Below, one piece after another: positions 9,010 through 52,462 of a stretch of 64,000 bases of DNA (within the stretch, counting starts at the first letter, position 1; each line of letters opens with the position of its first letter). Under the pieces are notes generated by a model. It saw nothing but the letters and a program-made list of their open reading frames with translations, was not told where the DNA came from and searched no databases. The position numbers and the translations under genes were made by a program. Source of the stretch: Candidatus Latescibacterota bacterium (GTDB taxonomy: Bacteria; Latescibacterota; UBA2968); assembly GCA_965208125.1 (NCBI GenBank), contig OZ242320.1, positions 3,520,001-3,584,000 on the forward strand. The letters run 5' to 3'.

Positions 9010-9035
9010 AGAGATGACCTGTTTGGTGAATTTAG

Positions 9036-10607
<1,572 letters not shown>

Positions 10608-36985: not shown

Positions 36986-36999
36986 ATATCATACCAACC

Positions 37000-37028
37000 T
37001 TGAAGAGCTAAATAAAGTTGGCTATACT
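37000..37028 (+). promoter_or_regulatory. Sigma70 promoter (copy 1 of a duplicated promoter)
   Basis: TTGAAG-17 bp-TATACT; ATAAAGTTGGCTATACTAAAT shared with the copy at 50327. Confidence 0.7.
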
Positions 37029-37150
37029 AAATATGCCAATTAATGACAATTGATACTTGTCACGCCTGCATGCCTGAAGCAAGCGTCCAAGAGGGGTGGT
37101 GTTTTGACGGAGAAACGCGCTACCCAAATCCGACTGAGGGTGAGAGGGCA

Positions 37151-37498
37151 ATGAAATCATTAGATGACCATATTGAGATTACCCCCGGTATATGCAGCGG
37201 CAAGCCTCGTATTGCTGGCCGTCGTATTACCGTGGCGCACATCGCCATCTGGCATGAACGCATGGGCAAATGTGCAGATGAAATCGCCACAGAATACGAT
37301 TTGACACTGGCCGATGTGTATGCAGCATTGGCCTACTATTTTGATCACCGAGAGGAAATTGACCAATCGATTCAAGAGGGTGAAGAATTTGCGGAGGCTT
37401 TACGCCAGAAGACACCGTCTCGCCTGGGTTTTATGGCAGGGCAGATTAAAGTCCCAGACGACTTTGATAGCATGGGCAGCATTGAGGAAGATAACTAA
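37151..37498 (+). CDS. DUF433 antitoxin-like protein with a Phd/VapB-like C-terminal tail
   Basis: IEITPGICSGKPRIAGRRITV...LADVYAALAYYFDH (DUF433); tail RLGFMAGQIKVPDDFD. Confidence 0.8.
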   Translation: MKSLDDHIEITPGICSGKPRIAGRRITVAHIAIWHERMGKCADEIATEYDLTLADVYAALAYYFDHREEIDQSIQEGEEFAEALRQKTPSRLGFMAGQIKVPDDFDSMGSIEEDN

Positions 37499-37500
37499 AC

Positions 37501-40500
37501 ATGGCTGATAATGACAAAACTGTTCTCGATGGATGGAAGAAAACACGATCTGGAGCACGGGCTGGTCGGGGTTTTGATTATCAACATCGATTTTCAACTC
37601 TTATCCTTGTTCAGCAATGGGCCGGACTGTTACCTACGGGCAATCTTGTCCCAGAGGGGCTTGAAGATTGTGTTGTAGAGTTGGCCGATCGTGACATTTG
37701 GATCCAAATCAAATCGAGAGAGCAGGGCACATTCAGCAAAGGCGAAGTAAAAAAAATTTTTGAGCAAGCCCGACGGAAAGCCAGCCTTGTCAACAATCAA
37801 AAGCCTACACTATTGGTTGCTGGTCTTGAGCGACCTTGTCCTACTGTTACCGGATACGAGATGGATGGTCTCTTTGATGGCAAAACCGAGAAGGTTGTTG
37901 TTTGCACTACACCGGAAGAGGAAATAGTTAATTTACTGTCTCAACATCTAAATATAGCGGAGATTATCGCCGAAGGACTGATGAACGACCTGTATAAACT
38001 CGTTGCTGAGAGTTCGGCGGCCAATGCCTCGCTTCCCTTTGAGAGAAGGCGGCGTATATCTACGACGGAGGTTGAATGCCGCATCCTTGAACGGCTTGAG
38101 GCTGAAGATCCTTCCGCAATCAATCGTGCTTTCGATATAAGGGCTCTGGAGCCTGTTGACTTCGTTACTCCTGTCTCTGAGCCTGGTTTTTATCAGGGCG
38201 TTAAAGTTAAACCTGGACACATCGCTTCCGGGTTAGTTATAGAGCGTCCAGGGGAAATACAAGACGTTGCCCAGGCATTTAAGAAACGCCGGCATCTTCT
38301 TGTCACCGGCCCCTCAGGGTCAGGAAAATCTGCTCTCATTTGGCTGGTCGCTCATTCGTTGACTACTGAGTTCCGCTGGTATCAGATTTCTGCCCAAGCG
38401 AACGCGCAAGATGCTGATGCAATTATTCGTTTCGTGAGGTCACGCCGCCCTAAGAAAGTCTCTCCGATTGGATTGATATTTGATGATGTTGGAGAATCCA
38501 GCAGCAATCTGTGGGATATTCTTACGAACCAACTCAGAAGTCTGTCAGATGTTTATATATTGGGATCAGTGCGTAATGAGGATATAGCTCTGATTACTAA
38601 TCAATCTGATACCGAATTTTTTGAGATCAGACTTGATAGTGAACTTGCACAGAGTATGTGGAAAAAACTGAACAGACAAAGCCAGACGAACTGGACTTAC
38701 TGGCGTGAACCGTTTGAACAATCCGATGGGCTGATGCTCGAATACGTACACCTCCTGACGCAGGGTAAGCGACTTGCCGCCGTGATCGGTGAACAGATTC
38801 GTCAAAGGGAACGAGAAAAACGATATGACGAACTCGCCATAATTAGAAGCACGGCTGTTCTATGTGCTTTCGGTGGCGAAGTTGAGGCTAAAAGGCTCTT
38901 CGAATTACTACAATTGCCACCAGACAGTGCAGCGCAGGCATTAAAGAGATTAATTGACGAACATCTTGTACGCGAAAGCCGTCCAGGTGTGCTCGGCGGT
39001 CTTCATGCTTTACGCTCGAAAGCACTTTGTGATGCTTCCCATGATGATGTTTCTTATCTACGCAGCGACTCGTTATGGCAGTCACTGGCGGCCTCAACAA
39101 ATGAGACATTGCCAAGAATTATTCAGTCAGTTCTCAATGAGACACAGAATGGAGCTGAATCTGTGACGATTCAGAATCTGGCGAAGGCACTTGCAGCAAG
39201 CGATGACATTGAGGTATGGGCTGCTATTCTTACCGGATTGGGTATAGGTACAATGGAACAATCTGTCGCTTCATTCATGGAAATGCTTGAAAAGCATGGA
39301 GTCCAACGCACCCATTGGTTTTTGGCCTCAATGTTCGCGGATGCCAGCATCGATGTCCCTGAATTATCAGGATTTGAAAACTTAAAGCCTATGCGAAACG
39401 CCGTGATAGCCTTCCGCGCGTTACCGAAACGCGATCTTCGGGCCGAATGTTTACAGATGTTGCCTCAGGGGACACAAGCTCCGGTATGTACAGATATTCG
39501 GCAACTTAACCTATTGCTCTCCTCTCTGGTACCGATACCTGGAGGAGACCACAGCCGGATTCCATTCAAGACGGATTTCTCTGGTTATGGTGAGCAGAAT
39601 ATTCATGATGTAGCCGCTCTCTTATCGACTGCTTACTTGATCGGGCCCGACGTGGCCAAAGATCTCGTGGACGCCTTTGGTGGGGAGCAGACCTTGTTTA
39701 CCTGGTTTCATTCCCAGATTCCTTGGGTAACTGTACCTAAAATTGAACCACAGGGAACTCATGGACGCACCGTCCGTGCTAACAGGTTTTTTGTAGCCGA
39801 GTCACATCAGACTGACGCTCATAAAACTCTCTGTGATATTTGTGAGACATTGATTGCTATATCGCCAATGTCGGATGCAGCTGCATCCGATGCCATAGGT
39901 CTGTCAGGACAGTCTATAGAAATAAACGGACTTAGCGATTGGTCAAAAAATATACCCAGAGAGAACCTTCCTTCAAAGGCTCGGGTGGCTTGGAACGTTG
40001 CCTTTCGCCAAATTTTGCTCGCACGAGCAGCTGAGCATAGTCTAACGGATTACACGCACGAGATGGCTGATCAGGTGAGACACACAGAAAAAATTTTTCG
40101 TTTGTTTTCGGAGCAATGGATCAAAGGATGGAGGATATCGAATAAGGACAGGCTTGTTTCGGAGATCAATGAGATTATGGATCATGTCGATGACTTGATC
40201 TATGCTAAGCCAAAAACATTAGCTTCCTCAATGACAAGTACCACCGGTGATACAGAAGAGGATGATAAGCTCGGTGCATTATTGGCTGGCGTACTTAGTA
40301 ATCTTGTTCCACGAATGTGTAAAATACCACCTGAGCCCAACGCGAAAGCGGCCGCGGCATTCACCAGCGGCCTCGCTGCACAGGCACGAGAGCAGGGAAG
40401 ATCCGAAATTTGGCGCACAACGCCATCACCGCCGTTAGATGAGTTAGCCACATTCTCAGAGCGTCTTGATGGTGTTGCTTGCATCTTGCACGAAATAGCA

Positions 40501-41343
40501 CACGACGATACAGCCAGAGCAATCAAAAATCTCCGTAAGGCAGCCAGGAAAGGGAGAATGGGAAAAGCTATTCATTCCGCGGCTGGTCGTTGTCGCTTGT
40601 TGGCTAAACAACGCTTCCATCGGAGGCTGCGTGCTTTAGAAAACGCGCTTAAAGCACAGGGTTTGACTGCCAGATGCAGAACTCGTCCTGTCAATGACGC
40701 CGATAGTATTGATTGGCCTGCCGTAGAAGTTGCCATTCTTATCAAGATCACAGATTCTGCAACTGATTGGGATTATCTCGAATACGGTCTTGCGATTGGA
40801 AAAAAGCAACTTGCACAAGATTGGCGATTCTGCGTTGTGCCTGTCATAAATAATCAAGTCATTGCAGACTTAGCATTCATTTCTTCATCACAAGGGCCAT
40901 TACCTGATGTGGAATTCGCACACAAATGGGAAGCTCATATTGACTTGCCGTTCCTCTCTCCTGAAATTTCAAATGCATTTGATGCAGCCGTAGAAGCCTG
41001 TAAGCAGATCTCAGCAATTATTAGCCATCGTGATCTGAAAACACTCCATCCTATGGAAGAAGAAGCTTTCTTGAAGGCCATAGACGACTTCGAGTGCTAC
41101 CGGAAGACTGTTGATGCTTTTCAACAAAAGACAGGACTGGAGCTATTTGATGGGGCACTGGCGTATCTCGACGAAATATGGAATCAGATTGTTAGCGAAA
41201 TTGAGTCCCTGAAAACAGGTCAGATGGTTGATAACCCATTGTGCCACATCATGGCGGATATGGAAAACGAAAAGGTTATTGAACTGGGTGTTGCGAAGAT
41301 ACTCTTGCGACAAGCTGAATGCTGCACTGTCGCCGCAGAGTGA
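37501..41343 (+). CDS. Putative antiphage nuclease-STAND ATPase (Cap4/DUF4297-like N-terminus + P-loop NTPase + long unknown C-terminus)
   Basis: GARAGRGFDYQ...EGLED...IQIKS; Walker A GPSGSGKS; Walker B LIFDD; LGSVR sensor; 1280 aa; visibly lower GC than flanking genes. Confidence 0.65.
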   Translation: MADNDKTVLDGWKKTRSGARAGRGFDYQHRFSTLILVQQWAGLLPTGNLVPEGLEDCVVELADRDIWIQIKSREQGTFSKGEVKKIFEQARRKASLVNNQKPTLLVAGLERPCPTVTGYEMDGLFDGKTEKVVVCTTPEEEIVNLLSQHLNIAEIIAEGLMNDLYKLVAESSAANASLPFERRRRISTTEVECRILERLEAEDPSAINRAFDIRALEPVDFVTPVSEPGFYQGVKVKPGHIASGLVIERPGEIQDVAQAFKKRRHLLVTGPSGSGKSALIWLVAHSLTTEFRWYQISAQANAQDADAIIRFVRSRRPKKVSPIGLIFDDVGESSSNLWDILTNQLRSLSDVYILGSVRNEDIALITNQSDTEFFEIRLDSELAQSMWKKLNRQSQTNWTYWREPFEQSDGLMLEYVHLLTQGKRLAAVIGEQIRQREREKRYDELAIIRSTAVLCAFGGEVEAKRLFELLQLPPDSAAQALKRLIDEHLVRESRPGVLGGLHALRSKALCDASHDDVSYLRSDSLWQSLAASTNETLPRIIQSVLNETQNGAESVTIQNLAKALAASDDIEVWAAILTGLGIGTMEQSVASFMEMLEKHGVQRTHWFLASMFADASIDVPELSGFENLKPMRNAVIAFRALPKRDLRAECLQMLPQGTQAPVCTDIRQLNLLLSSLVPIPGGDHSRIPFKTDFSGYGEQNIHDVAALLSTAYLIGPDVAKDLVDAFGGEQTLFTWFHSQIPWVTVPKIEPQGTHGRTVRANRFFVAESHQTDAHKTLCDICETLIAISPMSDAAASDAIGLSGQSIEINGLSDWSKNIPRENLPSKARVAWNVAFRQILLARAAEHSLTDYTHEMADQVRHTEKIFRLFSEQWIKGWRISNKDRLVSEINEIMDHVDDLIYAKPKTLASSMTSTTGDTEEDDKLGALLAGVLSNLVPRMCKIPPEPNAKAAAAFTSGLAAQAREQGRSEIWRTTPSPPLDELATFSERLDGVACILHEIAHDDTARAIKNLRKAARKGRMGKAIHSAAGRCRLLAKQRFHRRLRALENALKAQGLTARCRTRPVNDADSIDWPAVEVAILIKITDSATDWDYLEYGLAIGKKQLAQDWRFCVVPVINNQVIADLAFISSSQGPLPDVEFAHKWEAHIDLPFLSPEISNAFDAAVEACKQISAIISHRDLKTLHPMEEEAFLKAIDDFECYRKTVDAFQQKTGLELFDGALAYLDEIWNQIVSEIESLKTGQMVDNPLCHIMADMENEKVIELGVAKILLRQAECCTVAAE

Positions 41344-41430
41344 GTCTTACATGAGGAATAGTTCTTGTCTCATGTGGGCAGGTAAAGCAAGACTGGATGA
41401 TTGTATATTAACTTGGTTGGGAGAATCATA

Positions 41431-42798
41431 ATGATCAATGAACTCCAACCCTACCCTTCCTACAAATCTTCTGAAGTCGAGTGGCTTGGCGATGTGCCTG
41501 CCCATTGGGAAGTCAAGAGATTGAAGACAATAGGGCGTATCCGTTATGGGTTGGGTCAGCCACCTCGTGAATTAGCCGACGGGCTACCTTTGATACGTGC
41601 CACAAATGTGGATCATGGTCGCATAACTGACAAGAATTTGTTGTACATTGATCCATCAGATGTGCCGAACGGCCGCGATGCCATTCTAAGGGAGAAGGAG
41701 ATTATAGTCGTACGAAGTGGAGCCTACACGGGTGACTCGGCTATCGTTCCAAAAGCCTACGATGGAGCGATCACAGGTTACGATATGGTCGTAAGCGTGA
41801 CGGGGGCGCAACCTGAATTTGTCGCTATGGCGTTGTTATGCAAATACGTACGGGACGACCAATTGATTGCCGCAAGCACTCGATCTGCTCAGCCACACCT
41901 AAATGCTGAAGAATTGGGAACAGCAATATTGTTGGTTCCACCCCTCTCCGAACAAACTGCCATCGTCGCGTATCTTGACCAGGCCGACGAGCGCATCCGC
42001 TGCTACGTCAGCAGCAGGGAGTGGCTTATCGAACTGTTGGAGGAATATCGGCAGGGGGTCATCCACCACGCAGTCACGCGCGGCCTTGATCCTGATGTGC
42101 GCCTCAAGCCCTCCGGTGTCGAATGGCTTGGCGATGTGCCAGCGCATTGGGGCGTTGCTGCGGTCAAGAGACATTATTCCATTCAGTTAGGCAAGATGTT
42201 GCAGAATGGCCCAAACGTTCCAACAGACATTGCAGTGCCTTATCTGAAGGCGCAACATGTTCAGTGGTTTTCTGTTCGCACAACTGATGCGCCGACAATG
42301 TGGGCGAGTCCCCATGAAATTGAACAGTTTGGTATCCGAGCAGGCGATCTCCTTGTCTGTGAAGGCGGTGAAGGTGGACGATGCAGCCTCGTTGAAGAAG
42401 TGCCGCCCGGCTATATCATTCAAAACGCTCTTCACCGTGTAAGGTCATTCGGAACGAATAGGAATGATTATTTACAGTACGTGATGAGTTCTATTTCAAA
42501 AACAGGTTGGTTTGACGCAATCAACAACAAGGCAACAATAGCCCATTTTACAGCGGAAAAGTTCGGTTCATTGATGATACCCATCCCACCCCTCCCCGAA
42601 CAAACTGCCATCGTTCTCTATCTCGACAAGGCGACAGCTGACATTGACGCTGCCATTGATCGTGCGCGGCGAGAAATTGAGTTGTTGGGCGAATACCGCA
42701 CTCGCTTGATTGCCGATTTGGTTACAGGTAAAGTAGATGTGCGTGAAGCAGCGGCCGATCTGCCCGATGATGGGGATGTATCAGCGCTTGATTTTTGA
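41431..42798 (+). CDS. hsdS: Type I R-M specificity subunit
   Basis: Two TRDs with repeated VEWLGDVPAHW and PPLxEQTAIVxYLD; C-terminal YRTRLIADLVTGKVDVR. Confidence 0.93.
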   Translation: MINELQPYPSYKSSEVEWLGDVPAHWEVKRLKTIGRIRYGLGQPPRELADGLPLIRATNVDHGRITDKNLLYIDPSDVPNGRDAILREKEIIVVRSGAYTGDSAIVPKAYDGAITGYDMVVSVTGAQPEFVAMALLCKYVRDDQLIAASTRSAQPHLNAEELGTAILLVPPLSEQTAIVAYLDQADERIRCYVSSREWLIELLEEYRQGVIHHAVTRGLDPDVRLKPSGVEWLGDVPAHWGVAAVKRHYSIQLGKMLQNGPNVPTDIAVPYLKAQHVQWFSVRTTDAPTMWASPHEIEQFGIRAGDLLVCEGGEGGRCSLVEEVPPGYIIQNALHRVRSFGTNRNDYLQYVMSSISKTGWFDAINNKATIAHFTAEKFGSLMIPIPPLPEQTAIVLYLDKATADIDAAIDRARREIELLGEYRTRLIADLVTGKVDVREAAADLPDDGDVSALDF

Positions 42799-42877
42799 CG
42801 AAATTGAGCGCGTTTAACGCCTGTTGCACAGTGTCCCGATATTGGATATATACTCACCGAAACGGAGTATGCTAAAC

Positions 42878-44374
42878 ATGACCAACAACCGAGACCATGA
42901 TTATCTCCTTGGCTTGGTACGAGAATTGTGCAACCTGCCGCATGAGACCGATTGGGTTGAGTTCAAAGTCAACTATCGTAAGCCACACACCATCGGGGAG
43001 TACATCTCTGCGCTTGCTAATGCAGCGGCTCTCCATGGCAAAGCCCACGCGTACATGCTTTGGGGAGTAGAGAACGGAACGCATGTCGTTGCTGGCACAA
43101 AATTTTCGCCAGCGACCGCGAAAAAGGGCAACGAGCCGCTTGAGACCTGGCTGTTGCGACTTCTAACTCCCCGCATCGACTTTCGTTTTCACGAAGTTAT
43201 GGTTGATGAACTTCGCGTCGTTCTCTTAGAGATTGAACGTGCGTCACGGCATCCGGTCGCGTTCAATGGCATCGAGTACATCCGAGTGGGTAGTACTAAG
43301 AGAAAGCTCAAAGACTATCCCGAAAAGGAACGGACACTTTGGCGTGTGTTTGATCGGGTGAGCTTTGAAGAAGGCATCGCCAACGAACGCCTGAGCAGCG
43401 AGGACATTTTGCTCCTGCTTGACTATCCAAAATACTTCGATCTGCTCAATGTACCACTGCCCGATGGTCGCGTAGCCATCCTTGACGCACTCCGGCGAGA
43501 CCGACTGATTGCGCCCTGCGAGGCAGGCAGCTTTAATATCACAAATCTGGGGGCGATTCTCTTTGCGAAAAATCTTGGCGACTTTCCACGGCTGAAGCGC
43601 AAGGCCATTCGGATTATCCAGTACGTCGGTACGGGACGCATTGAGACCCTGAGAGAATACGAAGACACAAAAGGCTATGCCGCTGGTTTTGATGAACTGA
43701 TCGGTTATATTGACGCGCAACTGCCAGCAAATGAAGTCATCGGACAAGCACGACGCGAGACAGTACGGGCATTTCCCGAGTTAGCTGTACGCGAATTAGT
43801 GGCAAACATGCTCATCCATCAGGACTTTTTCGTAACGGGGGCAGGGCCTATGGTGGAGATATTTGAAGGCCGCATCGAGATTACGAATCCCGGCGAGCCG
43901 CTGGTGGATACTCAGCGTTTCCTCGATAGCCCTCCGACATCTCGCAATGAAGTACTCGCCTCGCTCATGCGTCGCTTTCAGATTTGTGAGGAGCGCGGCA
44001 GTGGGATTGACAAAGTCGCGATAGAGGTTGAGCGTTATCAGTTACCTGCCCCGCTTTTTGAAGTGCCAAAAGGTTTCACGCGCACTACCCTGTTTGCCCA
44101 TAAGTCTTTGGCCGATATGAGTAAGGCAGAGCGGATGCGAGCATGCTACCTGCATGCCTGTTTACAATACGTGACCCGTCAGCGAATGACCAATGCGTCA
44201 CTACGCGAACGATTCGGGATTGCCGAAAAAAACGCTTCGATGGCTTCACGATTCCTCAATGAAACTATGGAAGCAAACCTTATCGTTGTGGCAGATCCCG
44301 ACGCTGGCCCGCGAAATCGCCACTACCTGCCCTTCTGGACGGCCCTTGAACCGAATGCAGGAGAAATGGTTTGA
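42878..44374 (+). CDS. Schlafen/AlbA_2 + HATPase_c_4 + wHTH protein (copy 1)
   Basis: ETDWVEFK, ISALAN, LWGVEN; RELVANMLIHQDF, SRNEVLA, EERGSGID; C-terminal TNASLRERFG HTH. Confidence 0.8.
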   Translation: MTNNRDHDYLLGLVRELCNLPHETDWVEFKVNYRKPHTIGEYISALANAAALHGKAHAYMLWGVENGTHVVAGTKFSPATAKKGNEPLETWLLRLLTPRIDFRFHEVMVDELRVVLLEIERASRHPVAFNGIEYIRVGSTKRKLKDYPEKERTLWRVFDRVSFEEGIANERLSSEDILLLLDYPKYFDLLNVPLPDGRVAILDALRRDRLIAPCEAGSFNITNLGAILFAKNLGDFPRLKRKAIRIIQYVGTGRIETLREYEDTKGYAAGFDELIGYIDAQLPANEVIGQARRETVRAFPELAVRELVANMLIHQDFFVTGAGPMVEIFEGRIEITNPGEPLVDTQRFLDSPPTSRNEVLASLMRRFQICEERGSGIDKVAIEVERYQLPAPLFEVPKGFTRTTLFAHKSLADMSKAERMRACYLHACLQYVTRQRMTNASLRERFGIAEKNASMASRFLNETMEANLIVVADPDAGPRNRHYLPFWTALEPNAGEMV

Positions 44375-44530
44375 TGAATCCCCCAAAATGACCCAATGGA
44401 AGCATAACCAACCGATTTTTTTCTTGACTGAAAGACCTAAAATGACCCAATAGAAATATTTTAAAATCTCTAATTTATTTTTTTTCAAATACTTATGAGA
44501 AATTTTTTTCTTGACTGTTATTTGATTGGT
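44370..44530 (+). repeat. Repeat / IHF-like core module A
   Basis: TTTTTTTCTTGACTG x2 and AAAATGACCCAAT x2; 25-bp core TAATTTATTTTTTTTCAAATACTTA at 44471-44495. Confidence 0.7.
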
Positions 44531-44564
44531 CATAGAAATGAATCCGCGATGCAGTGAAGAGGTC

Positions 44565-44759
44565 GAGTCGTCATTTGGTCTGGAATTGCTCTCTACGGTG
44601 CATTGGATCGCCAGCGAGGAGAAGATATTGGATTTTGATGACATCGTGAATCATACTTACGCCTGGAGCGAGAGAAAGAAGCAGTTTTCACAGCGTCAGA
44701 TTAAGATTGCATTTGATGTTTTGTCGGAGAAGGGCTGGGTTGAGCATACCGTAAGATGA
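44565..44759 (+). pseudogene. C-terminal remnant of a DarG-type macrodomain antitoxin
   Basis: ESSFGLELLSTVHWIA...AWSERKKQFSQRQIKIAFDVLSEKGW resembles the DarG C-terminus; macrodomain and darT are absent. Confidence 0.65.
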
Positions 44760-44794
44760 AGAACTATTTGCTCTTTTGGATCTGAGTTGCCATT

Positions 44795-45017
44795 CGGTAA
44801 TTGACGCAAAGCGGGCCGATAAGTTGTAAATTTCACTTAACTTATTTATTTTATTAAAATTATGTTAATTGATGGTCATTTGCTTGATGGTTGTTTGACG
44901 GTTGTTTGATAGAAAACCCTAAAAATGACTCGACAGGGCAGGTTTAATTTTTTAACTTATTGTTATACAAACACTTACTATTTTACAATTTGTTTGATGG
45001 TTGTTTGATAGAAAACC
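44795..45017 (+). repeat. Repeat / IHF-like core modules B and C
   Basis: TAATTGA(C/T)G pair around a core at 44838-44862; 11-bp-phased TG(C/T)TTGA units at 44881, 44892, 44903 and 44991, 45002 around core TAACTTATTGTTATACAAACACTTA (44953-44977). Confidence 0.72.
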
Positions 45018-45114
45018 AAACGATGATCGATACTACCGGGCGCGGTTTGGAAGTTTGTATCGGCGATATGAGGATGTAGAGCAGCCTGATTTTGACGAAA
45101 GCGAGCACGTTAAC

Positions 45115-46818
45115 ATGAGTGAAAGCCAGGACATCGCTCTCATTGATGAGTTGCGCAGTCTGCGGACAGAGACCGAATGGTTGGAGTTCAAGCGCAATCG
45201 CTATGAACCCAGACAGATCGGGGAATACCTGTCCGCGCTTGCGAACTCGGCCTGCATCGCTGCTAAGCAGGCTGGCTATCTTGTCTTCGGTATTGACGAC
45301 GAGACACATGAGGTCGTCGGCACAAATTTTGATCCTTATAATACCAAAGCGAAGGGCAATCAAGACCTGTTGCCCTGGGTTGGGGCGGGGTTGCATCCGA
45401 ATGCAGGATTCGAGCCACGTATTGTCAATCATCCGGATGGTCGGGTCGTTGTCTTTGAGGTTGGCCCCGCGAGAGATCAACCGGTTAGCTTTTACGGAAA
45501 AGCTTATATCCGCGTAGGTTCCAGCAAGACCGAACTTAGCAAGTATCCCGAGAAGGCGCGCGTGATTTGGACGCACGGGAGCGACTGGTCCGCAGAGGTG
45601 TGTGAACAGGCGAGGCTTGATGATCTTGACCCTGACGCCCTGGTCAAGGCGCGCGAGCAGTTCGTCATCAAGCATCCGGCGCAGGCGGATGAGGTCAAAG
45701 AGTGGGACGATGCGACATTTCTCAATAAAGCCCGGATTCTAAAGCAGGGTGCTGTGACGAATACGGCACTGCTGTTGCTGGGAAGGCCGGAATCGTCGGC
45801 TCTACTCTCGCCGGTGGTGGCTAAAATTTCTTGGATACTCAAGGACGACCACAATCTCGAGTTGGATTACGAGCACATTGGACCGCCGTTCTTGCTTGCG
45901 GGAGACCGTCTTCTGAATCGCGTTCGCAACCTCACTGTGCGCGCCCTGCCGAGTGGGACACTGTTCCCTCAAGAAATTACTCAGTACGACCCGTGGGTAA
46001 TCCGCGAGGCCCTGCACAACAGCATCGCACATCAGGACTATCGTCTGCGTGGACGGATTGTTGTCGTCGAATTTCCTGACCGTATCTTGCTGACCAATGT
46101 TGGGGATTTTCTGCCCGGCGATGTCGAGACGGTCATCCAACAGGACGCTCCCCAGGCCATCTACCGCAATCCATTCTTAGCTGATGCCATGGTTGAATTG
46201 AATCTGATTGATACTCAGGGTGGCGGTATTAAGCGCATGTTCGATACACAGAGGAAGCGTTTCTTTGCACTCCCAGACTACGATTTGACCGAGATAAGTA
46301 GCGTGGCTGTGAGCATCCACGGTCGCATTCTTGATGAGCGCTATACTCGGCTCCTGATGGAACGAACTGACCTGAACCTCAGTCAGGTTATGCTACTTGA
46401 CCAGGTACAGAAGGGAATGCGTATCAGCCGGGAAGATCATCGCTATCTGAAGACCAGTGGCCTTGTTGAAGGCCGTTATCCTAACTTGATGGTCGCTGAA
46501 TCGATTGCTAAGGTGACGGGGGATACTGACCGCTACGTCCGCGAACGTGGGTTCGACAAGCAGTACTACCTGGATATAATTTTAACCTTGATCCGCGAAC
46601 ATGGCCCGGTCAGTCGCAAGGAGATCGATCAGGCCCTGACTTCGAAGCTACCTGATCGGCTGACAGAGGAGCAGAAACAGATCAGGGTCCGTAATCTTAT
46701 ACAGGAATTGCGTCTCTCCGATTTGATCGTCAACCAGGGGTCCCGTGTTCAACCCGCATGGGTGCTTACAGAAGCGCATCCGGAAAGAAAATTTAGTAAA
46801 GAAAATAAAGAAAACTAG
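45115..46818 (+). CDS. Schlafen/AlbA_2 + HATPase_c_4 + wHTH protein (copy 2)
   Basis: ETEWLEFK, LSALANS, LVFGIDD; REALHNSIAHQDY, YRNPFLA, DTQGGGIK; C-terminal VSRKEID HTH. Confidence 0.8.
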   Translation: MSESQDIALIDELRSLRTETEWLEFKRNRYEPRQIGEYLSALANSACIAAKQAGYLVFGIDDETHEVVGTNFDPYNTKAKGNQDLLPWVGAGLHPNAGFEPRIVNHPDGRVVVFEVGPARDQPVSFYGKAYIRVGSSKTELSKYPEKARVIWTHGSDWSAEVCEQARLDDLDPDALVKAREQFVIKHPAQADEVKEWDDATFLNKARILKQGAVTNTALLLLGRPESSALLSPVVAKISWILKDDHNLELDYEHIGPPFLLAGDRLLNRVRNLTVRALPSGTLFPQEITQYDPWVIREALHNSIAHQDYRLRGRIVVVEFPDRILLTNVGDFLPGDVETVIQQDAPQAIYRNPFLADAMVELNLIDTQGGGIKRMFDTQRKRFFALPDYDLTEISSVAVSIHGRILDERYTRLLMERTDLNLSQVMLLDQVQKGMRISREDHRYLKTSGLVEGRYPNLMVAESIAKVTGDTDRYVRERGFDKQYYLDIILTLIREHGPVSRKEIDQALTSKLPDRLTEEQKQIRVRNLIQELRLSDLIVNQGSRVQPAWVLTEAHPERKFSKENKEN

Positions 46819-46942
46819 TCTAAAAAAGAGTAGCGGCATAAAAGGAATATATATAAGTATTTGTTTTTATAAGGTTTGTTCTTTACTAAAATTTGGAATA
46901 TTTTTGGAATTTAGTAAAGATTTAGTAAAGAATTTAGTAAAG
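46792..46942 (+). repeat. TTTAGTAAAG repeat module D around an IHF-like core
   Basis: Direct copies at 46792, 46910, 46921, 46933; inverted copy at 46881; core TAAGTATTTGTTTTTATAAGG at 46854. Confidence 0.78.
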
Positions 46943-47076
46943 CCGCGTTATTTTTCAAGCTCTTAATCGACTGCGGTCCTGAATCTTTCACAGTAGTTGA
47001 CTGGTACTTGACTGAAACGCATTTGGAATGATATTTTTCCATACTTGGAAAGCAACCCGGAGCGAGAGAGCAAGGT

Positions 47077-50000
47077 ATGAAGAGTCGGGATACTGAACCA
47101 ACGCAATCTCAGAAAGAAGAACTGGACGCGCTTGCGGCTTTGCCCGATGACGAGATAGATACTTCTAATATTCCCGAGATTATCGAGGGATCAAATTCTG
47201 TGCGCGGGCTGTTCCATAAGTCCGCCAGTGAGCGGAGTAAGGCGATGGGTGAACTCAGAGGCAGACGCCCGTCGGTTACCGATACTTCTGAACGCGGGTT
47301 GGAAGATCGCATTTGCGAGATGTTGGCTGGTAGGGGGGGTAAATCGGATACGGGTGATGTAGGGGAGCGTCCGGCTGCATATAGCGCGGGTTGGCGTTAT
47401 GGGGAGCGCGAGGATTACGACCGCGAGTATTGCGTGGATCTGGCGCAGTTGACGGCTTTTCTGGTGGCGACGCAGCCGGGGGTTGCTGAGGCGCTGTCTT
47501 TGGAGAGCGATAATCCGACGCGACGCCGGTTTCTCGCCCGGTTGAAGAGCGCAGTTGGCAGGCGCGGTATTGTCGATGCGCTTCGCAATGGTGTTAAGCA
47601 CGGGCCGCACGATATTGCGCTTTTTTACGGTGCGCCATCGCCGGGCAACCAACGGGCGGTGAAGCTTTATGAGCAGAATCGCTTTTCGGTTACGCGCCAG
47701 TTGTCGTATAGCAATGCCAATAAGCGGCTCGCGCTTGATCTCGGGCTGTTTATCAATGGTCTGCCTGTGGCGACTTTTGAGTTGAAGAATAGTCTTACGA
47801 AGCAGACGGTGGCAGATGCGGTTGAGCAATACAAACGCGATCGGAATCCGAGGGAGGAACTTTTTCGCATTGGTCGTTGTCTGGCTCATTTCGCGGTGGA
47901 TGAACACGAGGTGATGTTTTGTACGCATCTCAAGGGTAAGTCGTCGTGGTTCCTGCCTTTTAATAAGGGTTGGGATGATGGTGCTGGCAATCCGACCAAT
48001 CCCAATGGGCTTAAGACCGATTATTTGTGGCAGGAGGTTTTGACCCGGCAGAGTTTGACGGATATTATTGAGCATTATGCTCTGTTGGTGGAGTCTGCTG
48101 ACGCACAGACCGGGCGCAGGTCTCGGACGCAAATCTGGCCGCGCTATCACCAGTTGGATGTGGTGCGGAAGTTACTGGCTGATGCTGTGGAGAAGGGGGC
48201 GGGGCAGCGCTATCTCATTCAGCATTCGGCGGGTAGTGGAAAGTCCAATTCTATCGCGTGGTTGGCGCACCGTCTCATTGGGGTGGAAAAGGGCGGTGAG
48301 ACGGTTTTTGATTCTATTATTGTTGTGACTGATCGGATTATTCTGGATAGGCAGATCAATGATACCATCCGGCAGTTTGCGCAAGTGGGTGCGACTGTTG
48401 GGCACGCTGACCGATCTGGCGATTTGCGCCGCTTTATTGTTGAGGGAAAGAAAATCATTATCTCGACTGTGCAGAAGTTTCCGTTTATCCTGGACGAGAT
48501 TGGCACAGATCATCGGGGAAGCCGCTTTGCTATCATTATTGATGAGGCGCATTCCAGCCAGGGTGGGCGTACGTCTTCGGCGATGGCGCAGGCTCTGGGC
48601 GACCATGAGGATGGGGATGATGAAGATACTTTTGAAGATAAAATTAACCGGATTATTGAGCAGAAGCGTCTGTTGACCAATGCCAGCTATTTTGCTTTTA
48701 CTGCCACGCCGAAGAATAAAACGCTGGAGTTATTTGGCACGCCAGTGCCGCAGCCCGATGGCACGACAAAGCATCGGTCCTTCCACGGATATGCGATGAA
48801 ACAGGCGATTGAGGAGGGGTTTATTCTGGATGTGCTGGGTAATTATACGCCGGTAACGAGTTATTATCACCTCGCCAAGACGATAGAAGATGATCCGGAG
48901 TTTGATACAATAAAGGCGAGGAAGAAGCTCATCCGCTATGTGGAAACGCACAGCCATGCGATTCGCCTCAAAGCCGAGATTATGGTTGATCATTTCCACG
49001 AGCAGGTGCTGGCACCGCGCAAAATTGGGGGACAGGCACGGGCGATGGTTGTAACGGGTGGTATTCAGATGGCGATTGAATACTATCACGCTATCCGCAA
49101 TTACCTGAATGAGCGCAATAGCACGCACAAAGCTATTGTCGCTTTTTCTGGCGAGGTAGATTACGGTGGTGAGAGGGTGAGTGAATCGTCGTTGAACGGT
49201 TTTCCATCATCGCAAATTGCCAGCAAGATTCAGGAAGATCCCTATCGGTTGCTGGTCTGTGCGGATAAGTTCCAGACGGGCTATGATGAGCCTTTGTTGC
49301 ATGTGATGTACGTGGATAAGGTGCTTTCTGGCATTAAGGCCGTGCAAACGCTCTCTCGTCTCAACCGCGCCCATCCGGATAAGCGCGATACGTTTGTGCT
49401 GGATTTCTACAATGACGCTGATATGATAAAGGATGCTTTTGCTGATTACTACCGCACGACTATTTTGGCGGATGAAACCGATCCCAACAAGTTGCACGAT
49501 CTCAAGGCTGAACTGGATGGGCGGCAGGTTTATTCCGATGAGCAGGTCCGCAATGTGGTGGCGTCGTATTTGAAGGGCGATGACCGCAGTGCTCTTGATC
49601 CCATTCTGGATGCGTGTGTGGCGATCTATCGCAGTGAACTGGATGAGGATGGGCAGGTTGAATTTAAGGGCAATGCCAAAGCCTTTGTGCGCGCATACAA
49701 CTTCTTGTCTCAGGTGCTTCCCTATGCAAATGTGGAATGGGAACAGCTTTCCATTTTTCTGAATTTTCTCGTTCCCAAGCTGCCGACGCCCGCTACTGAA
49801 GATTTGTCGCTGGGTATTGAGGGTGCTATTGATATGGATAGCTATCGCGCCGAGAAACAGGCGACGATGCAAATTCTGCTATCCGATGAGGATGCCGAGA
49901 TCGAGCCGGTGCCCACGGGTGGCGGCGGTCATAAGCCAGAGCCGGAAATGGATCGGCTTTCCAATATTCTCCGGTCCTTCAATGATCTTTTTGGCGATAT

Positions 50001-50256
50001 TCCGTGGACCAATGAAGATCGCATTCGCAGGATGATTACCGAGGATGTTCCGAAGATGGTTGATGCGGATAGTGCCTATCGCAATGCGCGGGAACATTCA
50101 GATGAGCAGAATACGCGCATTGAACACGATAAGGCGTTGGAGAAAGCGATTATGGCTCTGCTCTCGGATGATACTGAACTTTACAAGCAGTATTCACAGA
50201 ATGAGGCGTTTAAGCGTTGGTTGGAAAATAGCGTGTTTGAACTGACCAATCGCTAA
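47077..50256 (+). CDS. hsdR: Type I R-M restriction subunit with a BrnA-like N-terminal extension
   Basis: DLGLFINGLPVATFELKN, QHSAGSGKS, DEAH, FTATP, KFQTGYD, QTLSRLNR. Confidence 0.95.
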   Translation: MKSRDTEPTQSQKEELDALAALPDDEIDTSNIPEIIEGSNSVRGLFHKSASERSKAMGELRGRRPSVTDTSERGLEDRICEMLAGRGGKSDTGDVGERPAAYSAGWRYGEREDYDREYCVDLAQLTAFLVATQPGVAEALSLESDNPTRRRFLARLKSAVGRRGIVDALRNGVKHGPHDIALFYGAPSPGNQRAVKLYEQNRFSVTRQLSYSNANKRLALDLGLFINGLPVATFELKNSLTKQTVADAVEQYKRDRNPREELFRIGRCLAHFAVDEHEVMFCTHLKGKSSWFLPFNKGWDDGAGNPTNPNGLKTDYLWQEVLTRQSLTDIIEHYALLVESADAQTGRRSRTQIWPRYHQLDVVRKLLADAVEKGAGQRYLIQHSAGSGKSNSIAWLAHRLIGVEKGGETVFDSIIVVTDRIILDRQINDTIRQFAQVGATVGHADRSGDLRRFIVEGKKIIISTVQKFPFILDEIGTDHRGSRFAIIIDEAHSSQGGRTSSAMAQALGDHEDGDDEDTFEDKINRIIEQKRLLTNASYFAFTATPKNKTLELFGTPVPQPDGTTKHRSFHGYAMKQAIEEGFILDVLGNYTPVTSYYHLAKTIEDDPEFDTIKARKKLIRYVETHSHAIRLKAEIMVDHFHEQVLAPRKIGGQARAMVVTGGIQMAIEYYHAIRNYLNERNSTHKAIVAFSGEVDYGGERVSESSLNGFPSSQIASKIQEDPYRLLVCADKFQTGYDEPLLHVMYVDKVLSGIKAVQTLSRLNRAHPDKRDTFVLDFYNDADMIKDAFADYYRTTILADETDPNKLHDLKAELDGRQVYSDEQVRNVVASYLKGDDRSALDPILDACVAIYRSELDEDGQVEFKGNAKAFVRAYNFLSQVLPYANVEWEQLSIFLNFLVPKLPTPATEDLSLGIEGAIDMDSYRAEKQATMQILLSDEDAEIEPVPTGGGGHKPEPEMDRLSNILRSFNDLFGDIPWTNEDRIRRMITEDVPKMVDADSAYRNAREHSDEQNTRIEHDKALEKAIMALLSDDTELYKQYSQNEAFKRWLENSVFELTNR
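50226..50256 (+). repeat. 31-bp direct repeat copy 1 (hsdR 3' end)
   Basis: AAATAGCGTGTTTGAACTGACCAATCGCTAA, identical to 52352-52382. Confidence 0.9.
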
Positions 50257-50278
50257 GGCAGAATACTTAGCGTAGCAG

Positions 50279-50316
50279 AAACAGCCCGTCCAAAGAGTTG
50301 GATGGGCTGTTTTTTT
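50279..50316 (+). terminator. Terminator after hsdR
   Basis: AAACAGCCCGTCCAA-AGAG-TTGGATGGGCTGTTTTTTT. Confidence 0.8.
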
Positions 50317-50326
50317 ATTTGCAGTC

Positions 50327-50355
50327 TTGAATATGTGGATAAAGTTGGCTATACT
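50327..50355 (+). promoter_or_regulatory. Sigma70 promoter (copy 2 of the duplicated promoter)
   Basis: TTGAAT-17 bp-TATACT. Confidence 0.7.
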
Positions 50356-50447
50356 AAATGCGGTATTGAACAGGCGTTCTTCGGGTGTCTTGTATGGACG
50401 AGGGAAGCAAAGGGTTATTAGAGCCAGATTATTTCAGGTAATTTTCC

Positions 50448-52331
50448 ATGGCAGAATTACGATTCGACATTACGCCGTTTCTGGATCAAGATGAAGGCCA
50501 GCACTTTGATCGCAAGTCGTTGTATGAAGGGGCAGTGGGTGCCAAACGGGCACGTAATCGCCGCGCCGTGCGGGATCAGGTTGCGGAATATGTGGCGGGC
50601 TTCGCCAATGCCGAAGGTGGCGTACTGATCCTGGGTATAGAGGATGACCGCACCATTACTGGACACCAGCTTCCTCAGGATGCCTTGAACAGTATCCTGA
50701 AGACCCCGAGCACTCGCTTGAAGCCCGTACAGCCCGATGGCTTTATTATGAATGTTCAAGGGTGCGAACTGATTGTTTTTGATGTGCCGGCTTCAGATGT
50801 TCCCGTTCAGGTAATCGGGGATGGCTTCCCGCTGCGAATGGGTGACCAGACAGTGCAATCCAGCGAGAGCCAAATCAATACGCTCAAGTTTGAAGGTATG
50901 GCGGAGAGTTGGGAAAGCCGACGATCATCAATGACTTTGGCTGATCTGGATGAACGACTGTTAGAAAGTGCAAGACAAGGGGCGGGTTTATCCGCTTTGA
51001 GTGATGAAGAATATTTGCTCAAGCGCAAATTGGCCGATCGCCGTGGGCGAGGGATTGTGCTTCGAAATGCTGCGGAGTTACTCTTTGCCCGTTATGGTCC
51101 GGACCATCCCAATGCTGGCGTTCGTCTATTTCGCGTTATTGGTACGGAGCGCTATACCGGACCCGAACACAATGTCGAAGAACGTCCGCGCTGCGAAGGC
51201 AACTTACCTGCGGTCATATTGGAAATCCGCACTGTCATCAGCAGTCTGTTGCGACGCCCTATGCGACTCGTGGGTAGTCGCTTTCAGGAATCCGCCGAAT
51301 ACCCGGATTTCGCCTGGCTGGAGGCGTTGCTCAATGCCATCGCACACCGCGATTACAGGATTGAAGGCACCTGTACAGAGGTCTGGCTATTCGATGACCG
51401 TATGGAAGTGGTCAGTCCGGGCGGACTGGTTGGCAACTTGACTACGGAAGCATTGCTCACACTCAAGCGCGTTCATCACAGCCGCAATCCCCGGATTATC
51501 CGGGTGCTCGTAGATCTCGGTCTCGCACGCGACCAGGGCGAGGGTATCCCACGGATGTTTGCAGAGATGGAAGACGCTTTTTTGCCAAGGCCAGATATAG
51601 ATGCTACCAATCGCAGTGTCACAGTCACGCTTCGGAACACGCTTACCCTGAACGCCAGTGATAGAGAATTTATCTCGGCACTCGGTGATATTGAGCTTTC
51701 TCGCAATGAGTTTCGGGCATTGCTTTACACTTATCGTCATGATCAGATAGACAATGCCAGGTTGCGGGCTTTATCCGGTCTGGATACCTTAAATGCCAGT
51801 TACCTTTTGCGCGGCCTCCGCGACCGGGATTTGCTGGCACTTCATTCTCACGGTCCCAACAGCTACTACACACTGACTTCTGTTCTGACATCGCAAGTTG
51901 GAGAATATAGAGCAAAAGGTAAGGAACTCGGTGCGGATGGGAGGGAGTTCGACCCGGATACAGGTAAGCTAGGCCCGGATACAGGTAAGCTAGGCCCAGA
52001 TACAGGTAAGCTAGGCCCGGATACAGGTAAGCTAGGCCCAGATACAGGTAAGATTCCTGATGATATCCAGGTCGCTATCGACCAACTTGGCCAGCGACCG
52101 CGTCGAGAAAATCTACGCCCTGTCATTCGCGCGATATGCGATCAAGGGAGATGGGTAACTGCCGCTGAACTTGCCGATTACTTGGGTTTTCACAAAAAAA
52201 ATCTATTAGGACACCTCGGAGAAATGGTGCAAAGTAAAGAACTCGAGCGACGCTTTCCGGACAAGCCTAAACATCCTCGTCAGGCTTACCGAGCCGTTGT
52301 GCCCAACACCCTTAGTCCTGAAACACGTTAG
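50448..52331 (+). CDS. Schlafen/AlbA_2 + HATPase_c_4 + repeat linker + Fic-associated wHTH protein (copy 3)
   Basis: DEGQHFDRKS, AGFANAEGGVLILGIED; EALLNAIAHRDY, SRNPRI, DQGEGI; C-terminal FPDKPKHPRQAY. Confidence 0.8.
   Translation: MAELRFDITPFLDQDEGQHFDRKSLYEGAVGAKRARNRRAVRDQVAEYVAGFANAEGGVLILGIEDDRTITGHQLPQDALNSILKTPSTRLKPVQPDGFIMNVQGCELIVFDVPASDVPVQVIGDGFPLRMGDQTVQSSESQINTLKFEGMAESWESRRSSMTLADLDERLLESARQGAGLSALSDEEYLLKRKLADRRGRGIVLRNAAELLFARYGPDHPNAGVRLFRVIGTERYTGPEHNVEERPRCEGNLPAVILEIRTVISSLLRRPMRLVGSRFQESAEYPDFAWLEALLNAIAHRDYRIEGTCTEVWLFDDRMEVVSPGGLVGNLTTEALLTLKRVHHSRNPRIIRVLVDLGLARDQGEGIPRMFAEMEDAFLPRPDIDATNRSVTVTLRNTLTLNASDREFISALGDIELSRNEFRALLYTYRHDQIDNARLRALSGLDTLNASYLLRGLRDRDLLALHSHGPNSYYTLTSVLTSQVGEYRAKGKELGADGREFDPDTGKLGPDTGKLGPDTGKLGPDTGKLGPDTGKIPDDIQVAIDQLGQRPRRENLRPVIRAICDQGRWVTAAELADYLGFHKKNLLGHLGEMVQSKELERRFPDKPKHPRQAYRAVVPNTLSPETR
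51953..52052 (+). repeat. 21-bp coding tandem repeat x~4.7 (PDTGKLG)
   Basis: CCC(G/A)GATACAGGTAAGCTAGG units. Confidence 0.92.
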
Positions 52332-52351
52332 GTTTCTCTTTTCCGGCTGTC

Positions 52352-52445
52352 AAATAGCGTGTTTGAACTGACCAATCGCTAACGCTGGGTACGCCGCAAA
52401 AATAAAAACAGCCCGTCCAAAAAGTTGGATGGGCTGTCTTTTTGT
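52352..52445 (+). repeat. 31-bp direct repeat copy 2 plus duplicated terminator
   Basis: Copy of the hsdR 3' end followed by AAACAGCCCGTCCAAAAAGTTGGATGGGCTGTCTTTTT. Confidence 0.88.
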
Positions 52446-52462
52446 TCGTATCACTGAAGGGG

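Follow-up and report, generated by a model that had tools for sequence, protein, structure and literature searches.

Candidate cognate repeat arrays at the 3′ ends of two families of Schlafen-GHKL-winged-helix genes, viewed from a type I restriction-modification island

The proteins considered here share their domain order, PF04326 followed by HATPase_c_4 and a helix-turn-helix (HTH) or winged helix-turn-helix (wHTH), with a class already described as pSlfn HisKinase-HTH or 'Schlatpase' with C-terminal HTH. In the accessible text of that literature the HisKinase-HTH type makes up 19.2% of 5,930 pSlfns, 60,692 of 103,533 SLFN proteins carry a GHKL domain, with most tails being HTH, and the association and exchange of the Schlafen-GHKL-HTH class with type I restriction-modification (R-M) systems is already noted. 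The experiments reported there concern Ig-like and DUF262 pSlfns and SLFN-pAgo, not the HisKinase-HTH subclass, and in the accessible text of these papers, supplements aside, we found no 3′ cognate repeats and no DNA target of the HTH, trigger or role for the subclass. A literature search, again limited to accessible text without supplements, found no description of 3′-flanking cognate repeats for the class. Here we analyse a 64,000-nucleotide stretch of a Candidatus Latescibacterota genome (contig OZ242320.1, positions 3,520,001 to 3,584,000; hereafter the window, numbered from its first letter), in which three genes of this class, Alb1, Alb2 and Alb3 (copies 1 to 3), lie in or next to one hsd locus. 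We propose that Alb1 and Alb2 represent two subfamilies whose C-terminal wHTH would read a subfamily-specific array of short repeats beginning at or near the stop codon of its own gene.

Several described systems share one part or another of this arrangement. RptR, from the RptR-hsdMS-DarTG-hsdR island of enteropathogenic Escherichia coli (Nucleic Acids Research 2025, PMC12255303), likewise binds DNA at short direct repeats (three TTTAGCTAA) and is tied to islands of type I R-M and DarTG, and relatives of the window locus also carry DarT-DarG between hsdS and hsdR. In the part of that paper available to us, however, RptR is a small all-helical dimer encoded upstream that binds a TAGCTA palindrome in its own promoter, whereas the putative reader here is the tail of a large nuclease-ATPase, its sites lie past the stop codon and its units lack TAGCTA. 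The WYL-HTH proteins BrxR and CapW and the C-proteins of type II R-M systems, named in the introduction of the same paper (PMC12255303), are HTH regulators that accompany defence systems and adjust the expression of a toxic neighbour, but they act at upstream promoter sites and lack nuclease and ATPase effector domains; in the present case the sites lie 3′ of the gene, and no conserved promoter was detected in the module. SLFN-pAgo (RzAgo) has the same Schlafen and GHKL supradomain and, as far as the available text goes, a nucleic-acid-recognition module that controls the nuclease through oligomerisation, the GHKL domain of this sibling family driving tetramerisation; its sensor is an Argonaute core with RNA guides, in place of a wHTH on fixed chromosomal units. 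The protein class, its tie to type I R-M, DarTG within type I R-M loci and the repeat-binding RptR are already known.

Alb1 (42824-44374, + strand), Alb2 (45001-46818, +) and Alb3 (50448-52331, +) each combine a Schlafen/AlbA_2 domain and a GHKL-like ATPase domain with a C-terminal wHTH or wHTH-like tail. The true start of Alb1 is likely ATG 42869 or 42878, since homologue matches begin at residues 17-19, and that of Alb2 likely ATG 45115, orthologue open reading frames (ORFs) beginning at residues 15-19. All three exceed the curated Pfam cut-offs for SLFN_AlbA_2 (PF04326, 25.3 bits; scores 65.6, 64.4 and 42.4) and HATPase_c_4 (26 bits; 77.8, 44.1 and 80.4). The C-terminal HTH is called by Pfam in Alb3 (MarR_2 29.1 bits, cut-off 27; aa 417-466, followed by a heptad linker and a second wHTH-like tail), appears in Alb1 as three helices and a β-hairpin wing in an AlphaFold2 model, and is seen in Alb2 as an alignment pattern with sub-threshold hits only. 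That three genes of this architecture lie in one hsd locus, as the first-pass annotation of this DNA had claimed, is borne out by these scores; with pairwise identities of only 22-30% they are old paralogues and not recent duplicates. The whole genome holds eight PF04326 genes.

The Alb1 model (predicted local distance difference test score, pLDDT, 86.5; predicted template-modelling score, pTM, 0.77) places the wHTH helices at 434-450, 457-464 and 471-483 and the wing at 490-500. Foldseek matches it to 3lmm (E 2e-20) and to SLFN N-domains (SLFN14, 13, 11, 5 and 12; E 2e-4 to 1e-3), and 3lmm is also the sole hit of a PDB sequence search with Alb1 (E 0.0014). This best whole-length structural match, DIP2311 of Corynebacterium diphtheriae (PDB 3LMM), is only 15-17% identical to Alb1 and is a structural-genomics entry whose title carries neither a function nor a DNA target. 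Across 59 rows of the Alb1 family the GHKL residues E324, N328, G392 and G394 are invariant; within the Schlafen acidic pair, E41 never varies and E46 appears in at least 90% of rows, with motif-level counterparts in Alb2 (ETEWLEFK) and Alb3 (EGQHFDRK). The reference acidic pattern, in the available text, is E-x4-E/D, as in E15/D20 of RorSlfn5.

The family-wide evidence begins with Alb1, for which a one-genome-per-species scan gave 80 homologues, 52-70% identical and from many phyla, in which we scored direct repeats of 9-mers at period 11 with at most 1 mismatch. Period-11 runs pile up past the gene, with 104 in the bins from -50 to 149 around the stop codon versus about 1 per 50-bp bin elsewhere (485 kb), and 70 of the 80 loci hold at least one within -15 to 300 of the stop. 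The unit has an 11-bp consensus, KTRNTTGAYGG, and occurs in high-G+C loci too. Its first copy lies over the stop codon in 11 of 79 loci and no more than 12 nt away in 28 more, and where only the distal pair was detected that pair mostly falls 84-99 nt past the stop. A full layout of two pairs is present in 30 loci, with a pair spacing of 88 bp (12 loci), 89 bp (10), 90 bp (4), 87 bp (3) or 85 bp (1), while the sequence of the spacer between the pairs is not conserved in these canonical modules. In about a dozen loci linked to hsdR, inspected by eye, the gap from pair 2 to the hsdR start is often no more than 10-45 nt. Around the gene start such repeats are essentially absent (5 runs in bins -1650 to -1450, against the 104 after the stop), so that the Alb1 family does not behave as an autoregulated HTH repressor with an upstream operator.

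A comparable plan is familiar from ParR-parC of plasmid R1, where 11-bp direct repeats form two clusters and are occupied cooperatively along one helix face; unlike there, no partition or replication genes are present here, and the sites are chromosomal and 3′ of a defence gene. Type III toxin-antitoxin systems of the ToxIN kind have tandem repeats of about 34-37 nt upstream of the toxin gene with a terminator between, and the present units, of 10-12 bp, downstream of the gene and in 2+2 or 1+3 copies, do not fit that plan. A sigma54 -24/-12 element was set aside by eye on its spacing, and TGATG stop-start coupling was rejected because C stands in place of T in 25 of 79 unit consensi. In six of the 30 canonical modules (among them L075, L076, L081, L094 and L097) ATCAA occurs 22-25 nt ahead of the distal pair, and three of the 30 spacers hold a match, of which ATCAA is part, to what we take to be the integration host factor (IHF) consensus, WATCAANNNNTTR (0.07 expected); this is a subclade feature and not a defining one.

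It is to Alb1, and not to hsdR, that the module belongs, because its downstream neighbours are unrelated and hsdR lies downstream in only 26 of the 80 loci (tblastn). With the window hsd proteins as queries, 36 of the 80 homologues have an hsd gene within 2.5 kb, 23 having both hsdS and hsdR, and 44 have none. Since a longest-ORF list of downstream genes was crude and contained some antisense artefacts, we relied on tblastn and on Pfam for ten chosen ORFs, which gave Mks-like, PLD+SNF2, methyltransferase, McrB, AAA_15/DUF3696, MutS2-like and TOTE genes, one housekeeping carboxylase and two without a hit. The suggestion that these genes guard an R-M system is thereby not supported as a necessary link, the more so as Alb2 and Alb3 occupy the island site in two relatives (G004, G008) without hsdM, hsdS or a full hsdR. 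PrrC, an RNase-type back-up effector inside an hsd operon, is held by the R-M protein complex and not by DNA repeats; unlike PrrC, the present proteins have no PrrC-type Pfam hit and a different fold, and their hsd link is not obligatory.

Covariation between protein and repeat was scored for 73 loci, by mutual information between the per-locus unit consensus, with units called by a rule of our own, and every protein column; seven loci had been dropped beforehand, L054 for its short sequence and L038, L042, L088, L093, L104 and L107 for doubtful units. The wHTH (residues 455-505) contributes 45 of the 424 scored columns, yet it supplies 7 of the top 10 for unit position 2 and 9 of the top 10 for position 3, against 1 for position 8. 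Two residues stand out, 496 (z 15.3 and 10.3) and 471 (z 13.5), whereas z is near 0 for most of the remaining wHTH columns. Lysine at 471 goes with a purine at unit position 3 (14/14) and serine or alanine with a pyrimidine (44/44); threonine or serine at 496 goes with G at position 2 (21/22), arginine or lysine with AT or AA (19/19), proline with AC (13/20) and aspartate with G at position 3 (5/5). On a FastTree tree built from residues 1-440 only, phylogenetically independent pairs changed in the same versus the opposite way in 8.6/0 of 13, 9.5/0 of 11 and 10.5/0 of 12 cases (median p 0.002-0.004); two weaker tests gave p 0.06, and two controls with unit position 8 gave p 0.45 and 1. In the AlphaFold2 model residue 471 is the first of the recognition (third) helix, 471-483, and 495-499 form the wing tip, the two elements with which a winged helix canonically touches DNA. 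The covariation of unit bases with predicted DNA-contacting residues thus reads like a code.

The copies in the window can be read against this pattern. Alb1 has its own, partly degenerate TTGA module (44367-44528, +), consisting of a unit over the stop codon (TTGA 44371-44374), a single unit TTTCTTGACTG (44420-44430, core 44424) and an 11-bp pair TTTCTTGACTG/TTATTTGATTG (44507-44528, cores 44511/44522), the 87 bp from 44424 to 44511 falling within the family mode of 87-90; a 97%-identical Alb1 in G017 has the same 3′ module. Pairs of the form TTGAYNG-N4-TTGAYNG, at 11-bp spacing, number 12 genome-wide against about 6 expected, and 5 of the 12 lie in 44511-47008. The best-phased units, TTGTTTGAYGG, form a separate 'TTGT'-type module upstream of Alb2 (44869-45015, +), with cores at 44884/44895/44906 and 44994/45005, the latter pair lying 99 bp after the 44895 pair and a promoter-like TTGTTA-18-TACAAT (44960-44989) standing between them. 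In relatives this module is directly 3′ of an Alb1-like gene, 61% identical, with T at 496 (L072/G006 and others; L072, a homologue from the one-genome-per-species scan, carries the genus-type module). As the units at 44884-45015 fit a T496-type protein and misfit the P496 of window Alb1, the most plausible reading is that they were orphaned when one cassette replaced another. A further TTGA pair, GTAGTTGACTG/GTACTTGACTG (46993-47014, +), precedes hsdR, its second unit being the -35 of a promoter-like TTGACT-18-TATTTT (47008-47037). This GTAC-type pair fits the AC-P496 rule at positions 2-3, and its leading G occurs mostly with A495 (13/15), where window Alb1 has G495. The first-pass annotation had placed TTGA units from the Alb1 stop codon onward with about 11-bp phasing; the unit over the stop and the 11-bp pair stand, and the best-phased units (44884-45005), judged by the residue-base code, are not a match for Alb1.

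Alb2 is followed by a different array (46792-46942, +) of TTTAGTAAAG, with one copy in the last codons at 46792, an inverted copy at 46881-46890 (− strand) and tandem copies at 46910, 46921 and 46933. The five occurrences described in the first-pass annotation are confirmed and compare with 0.05 expected in the window; none of 100 shuffles reached five, and the whole 5.75-Mb genome holds ten. An array follows the Alb2 gene or a fragment of it in 12 of 12 genus loci, being TTTAGTAAAG-like in the window, G002, G005, G019 and G016 and of the TTTATTAAAG kind in G017, G020, G012, G004, G008 and G014, with one unit of each kind in G010; the inverted copy changes in step in four of the six TTTATTAAAG genomes. 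Among 15 full-length metagenomic homologues, 47-75% identical and representing 8 independent clades, an inverted unit plus two to four tandem xAGYAAAG-type units at 11-12-bp spacing is found in all 8, with clade-specific forms that include TAGCAAAGG, TAGTAAAGG, TAACAAAGG, ATCAAAGC, TTTAGTAGAG and AATAGGATA; a unit copy often sits at the stop codon, and hsdR is next in only three of the 8 clades. The downstream repeats in homologues that the first-pass annotation would have required are therefore present in both families, in 70 of 80 copy-1 loci and 8 of 8 copy-2 clades.

The copy-2 variants also follow the protein. In the genus orthologues, 13 of 164 variable columns split the TAGTAAAG group from the TATTAAAG group, all within residues 560-599, whereas the 139 variable columns that precede residue 550 include no such column. 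Between clades, the helix position just ahead of the conserved N-L holds H in all 6 clades with xxxCAAAG units and R, N, R or Q in the 4 with xxxTAAAG/TAGAG units. The copy-2 motif variants thus appear to track the last wHTH only, and the proposed co-variation of motif and wHTH, once checked, is upheld for both families. At three distant hsdS-Alb1-hsdR loci (L037, L038, L090) a TAGYAAAG array is nested between two TTGA pairs; these nested arrays may have been left behind by an Alb2 cassette since lost, or may represent an element of their own close to hsdR.

We propose a model that accommodates these observations. Alb1 and Alb2 would be two subfamilies of the Schlafen-nuclease, GHKL-ATPase and HTH class, each with its own iteron-like array, and the C-terminal winged helix would read the array that begins at or near its own stop codon. 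The protein could be loaded in cis as an oligomer, plausibly a dimer of dimers through the GHKL domain, on the 2+2 sites. The array would then serve as an autogenous operator or as a roadblock at the 3′ end of the gene, where it would limit transcription into the adjacent gene, which is hsdR in this locus and a different defence gene in others, and binding would also hold the protein at the locus that encodes it. The comparative evidence makes binding of the units by the wHTH very probable. To the whole reading, a cognate 3′ array read by the wHTH and acting as operator or roadblock, we assign a probability of roughly 55%, and that transcriptional control or insulation is the main role of the array we hold only tentatively, at somewhat less than even odds. 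What the comparison of sequences establishes is linkage, anchoring, geometry and covariation, the arrays travelling with the gene whatever lies downstream. The idea that each wHTH is paired with cognate repeats is in this form partly supported: the observation was real and partly mis-assigned, and the core of it holds for copies 1 and 2, through the homologue arrays and the covariation, generalises to large families and fails for copy 3, where the repeat is a coding linker.

This model provides a defined cis element, with 11-bp units, an 88-89-bp pair spacing, stop-codon anchoring and a residue-base code, that makes a common and poorly understood class testable. It also explains conspicuous repeats in type I R-M and other defence islands for the purpose of annotation, and it carries the practical warning that constructs with upstream DNA only omit the cognate sites.

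A number of points nevertheless weigh against the model. The 30 canonical modules show no excess of sigma70-like matches (+ strand 4, − strand 2, shuffles 4.2), and a promoter scan of the window region is not above shuffles (13 versus 9.3 ± 2.9). Promoter-like hexamers do overlap the units ahead of Alb2 and hsdR in the window, but a promoter inside a repression loop was dropped as a general feature because the 30 modules hold no conserved one. The module is kept beside a housekeeping gene and beside neighbours that the crude ORF list called on the opposite strand, a poor fit to a regulator of the downstream gene, and the conservation of the nuclease (E41/E46) and GHKL residues makes the Alb1-family protein more than a repressor. 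The covariation has its own weak places: in-frame stops occur in 7 of the 73 sequences, and, as the wHTH coding region adjoins the array, shuffled old haplotypes of wHTH plus array could inflate the independent-pairs test, although the z near 0 of most wHTH columns counts against this objection. On the Alb2 side, an array follows the darG remnant in seven genus loci with no intact Alb2 beside it; as homology there starts 45 nt inside the Alb2 3′ end, we read these seven as deletion relics. TAGYAAAG arrays without Alb2 occur in 3 of the 80 copy-1 loci, the three with nested arrays above, and the Alb2 array can itself form a hairpin (z -2.96, equalled by 2 of 200 shuffles, and z -3.43, equalled by 0 of 200).

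With no conserved promoter, unrelated neighbours and conserved nuclease and ATPase residues, the operator or roadblock role is not secure, and DNA-templated parking of the protein, a sharper form of the model in the first-pass annotation, becomes a serious rival, even if we regard it as unlikely. The arrays would hold the Schlafen-GHKL protein as an inactive DNA-bound oligomer, its tRNase firing once the protein is released, whether because the locus is lost or degraded, because foreign DNA or DNA mimics compete for the protein, or because ATP drives a rearrangement, so that the array would be a cis-encoded DNA 'antitoxin'. The anchoring of the module to the stop codon and not to the start of the neighbour, its retention whatever gene lies downstream and the conserved nuclease and ATPase residues all speak for parking. 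By analogy, in the available text on SLFN-pAgo, guide-RNA filaments lock SLFN inactive and ATP/GHKL-driven tetramers are the active nuclease, and it is as an analogy with SLFN-pAgo only that the idea of inactivity while DNA-bound stays alive. Furthermore, a published screen, according to its accessible text, cloned HisKinase-type pSlfns with only 100-150 bp of upstream DNA, its two defending systems being DUF262-Slfn and Ig-like pSlfn5. The tolerance of orphan modules and of the degenerate module of window Alb1, on the other hand, argues against strict dependence, and toxicity, tRNA cleavage and trigger are only putative for this subfamily, as is a link to mimics of the Ocr/ArdA type. A more specific version, with the iterons as a DNA 'antitoxin' or licence, in which the tRNase-ATPase is loaded co-translationally on the units at its own stop, stays inert as a 2+2 oligomer and becomes an abortive-infection or addiction nuclease when the DNA is lost, degraded or out-competed, we consider quite unlikely. 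If it were true, the wHTH-plus-iteron tail would be a transferable control unit that serves other toxic heads too, with tail and iterons matched at each locus by the residue-base code.

The modules might alternatively be recombination substrates, placed at cassette junctions for the swapping of defence genes at the hsd locus, with protein binding secondary. A DNA search of 40 relatives and the annotation of 18 same-genus loci show that the interval between the malate dehydrogenase (MDH) gene and the PRA-PH gene is highly variable, containing hsdM/S/R with or without DarT-DarG, an HTH_3+Peptidase_M78 gene with DUF4411, AAA_15 and others, and differing subsets of Alb1-like genes, Alb2 and Alb3. 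The locus is a cassette-swapping defence island, some window modules being orphans or relics in consequence, and these modules and gene relics record the turnover. Intergenic modules recur at every cassette junction in the genus, duplicated, in variable copy number and ahead of unrelated genes (Alb1-like, Alb2, ImmA/IrrE-DUF4411), their units varying from 2 to 4 and reaching nine copies of TTGACGGTTGC in G014 (L022, about 8990-9090). Deletions are marked by relics, namely the Alb2 tail fused to darG, hsdR 5′ fragments and a repeat of about 100 bp around Alb3. This explanation, however, does not account for the fixed 88-89-bp spacing around a variable spacer sequence, for the anchoring at stop codons in many phyla or for the residue-base covariation, and no recombinase is linked to the modules, the sole mobility gene noticed in the 18 genus loci being a transposase-like ORF in G006 that was itself not scanned against a family library. 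We regard it as improbable.

Nor do we give much credit to a reading confined to the Alb2 array, as a nucleic-acid hairpin (3′-end stabiliser, terminator or cruciform) or as the site of an RptR-type regulator other than Alb2, which seems distinctly improbable. The inverted copy does pair with a direct copy at the z scores given above, both arms change together between genomes, RptR is a precedent for direct repeats bound in such an island, as far as the accessible text of PMC12255303 goes, and the array stands upstream of hsdR without Alb2 in L037, L038 and L090. Against it, the array follows Alb2 with no nearby hsdR in 5 of 8 distant clades, the motif variants follow the last wHTH only, the hairpin has no T-tract after it and the terminator scan did not call it. 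Regulation of the RptR type was rejected because the defining TAGCTA palindrome is absent from TTTAGTAAAG and TTTATTAAAG (by eye) and because the space upstream of hsdM, between MDH and hsdM, is narrow for a regulator gene, at about 300 bp here and some 140 bp in G017; no search was made for the RptR protein itself. That the units are ordinary promoter parts (TTGAC -35 boxes, UP-like repeats) or chance low complexity in AT-rich spacers is very improbable and already largely refuted. The TTGAC core does look like a -35 consensus, units supply the -35 of local promoter-like hits and the spacer G+C is low here (0.418 in 44001-45000). Against this, only 12 pairs exist in 5.75 Mb with 5 at this locus, period-11 runs concentrate past the stop, the modules show no enrichment of promoters, high-G+C loci have units as well, and the units co-vary with the wHTH.

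Alb3 differs from the two families for which we prefer a cognate 3′ array. Its 21-bp repeat (51953-52052, +; Tandem Repeats Finder 4.8 copies, 96% matches) is in frame and encodes PDTGKLG five times, and 4-7 heptads x-D-[TGAI]-[GER]-[KE]-[LF]-x stand at the same place in 8 of 8 aligned orthologues. As the period equals seven codons and the heptads are conserved, the repeat is a coding linker and not a binding site. It had been described as lying in the linker before the wHTH; it is in a linker, but one that follows the wHTH called by Pfam (aa 417-466) and leads to a conserved tail in which wHTH hits stay below threshold (MarR_2 E 0.0075). Upstream of Alb3, a promoter-like TTGAAT-17-TATACT (50327-50355) with a flanking imperfect direct repeat, GCAGTCTTGAAKATGYG-like (50321-50377, +), is conserved ahead of Alb3 orthologues wherever they are located; the repeat is a candidate operator, and Alb3 may fit an upstream-operator pattern. 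More distant relatives in the phylum carry 11-bp tandem units past the stop (CCTGCTCTAAA x3 in L213, GGTTTATGAAG x4 in L214). A fourth wHTH-tailed AlbA_2 gene of the genome (552-aa frame, outside the window) has, downstream of G000:C1 2456412-2456750, TTTAAGTGCA x7 at a 10-bp period about 90 nt past its stop, and in the same genome no such repeats were found at a fifth wHTH-tailed gene, at two genes without that tail and at one with a different tail.

The hsd locus itself is complete, with hsdM (34850-36985, +; N6_Mtase 172.5 bits, HsdM_N 78.1 bits), hsdS (41401-42798, +; Methylase_S 62 bits, 2 stretches) and hsdR (47077-50256, +; HSDR_N, SWI2_SNF2, ResIII, T1R_D3-like) making up a type I R-M system that is interrupted by a DUF433 gene (37043-37498, +), a 1280-aa STAND NTPase (nSTAND_NTPase5; 37501-41343, +), both called by Pfam between hsdM and hsdS, Alb1, a darG remnant and Alb2. 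The remnant of this macro-domain antitoxin is a 73-codon ORF (44538-44758, +) that aligns, at 84-95% identity, with the C-terminus of 198-362-aa ORFs in relatives, the 362-aa one having a Macro domain and being located after DarT. DarT-DarG is intact between hsdS and hsdR in G013 and G011, and truncated darG forms (198-212 aa) follow hsdS in six further relatives. Fragments of the hsdR 5′ end (residues 1-72) remain in L020, L022, L023, L024 and L025, the rest of hsdR being gone, and G005 has two; they mark deletions between repeated upstream modules. The direct repeat of about 100 bp that brackets the Alb3 cassette has its left copy over the hsdR 3′ end and a terminator hairpin (50219-50319, +; terminator-like site 50277-50314) and its right copy at 52345-52446 (+; terminator-like site 52408-52437), the blocks found by the repeat search being 85% and 93% alike. 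In relatives without Alb3 here, hsdR continues directly into the right-hand copy, and the repeat looks like the scar of a cassette insertion.

TTGA-unit copy number also varies between genomes in L016, L019 and L023, and ahead of hsdR relatives have one to three copies of a unit of about 88 bp with TTGACTG pairs at its end; this variation could be slippage or phase variation. Four sponge metatranscriptome runs hold contigs 90-99% alike over parts of Alb1, the darG remnant, Alb2 and hsdR, but they do not give starts, strands or levels, DNA carry-over is possible, and we draw no conclusion from them. One contig of a related strain (run X2) joins window 42806-42984 to 44989-45037, with the TTGT-type module directly at the Alb1 start, and is another arrangement of the same cassettes. 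The DUF433 and STAND NTPase pair is also present in G020, with AAA_15, HATPase_c_3 or other genes in its place in other relatives. Finally, a G+C-rich terminator hairpin (AAACAGCCCGTCC...GGATGGGCTGTTT) recurs at 36999-37032 after hsdM, at 50279-50312 after hsdR, at 52408-52437 after Alb3 and after the MDH gene in relatives, and behaves like a small repeated terminator element.

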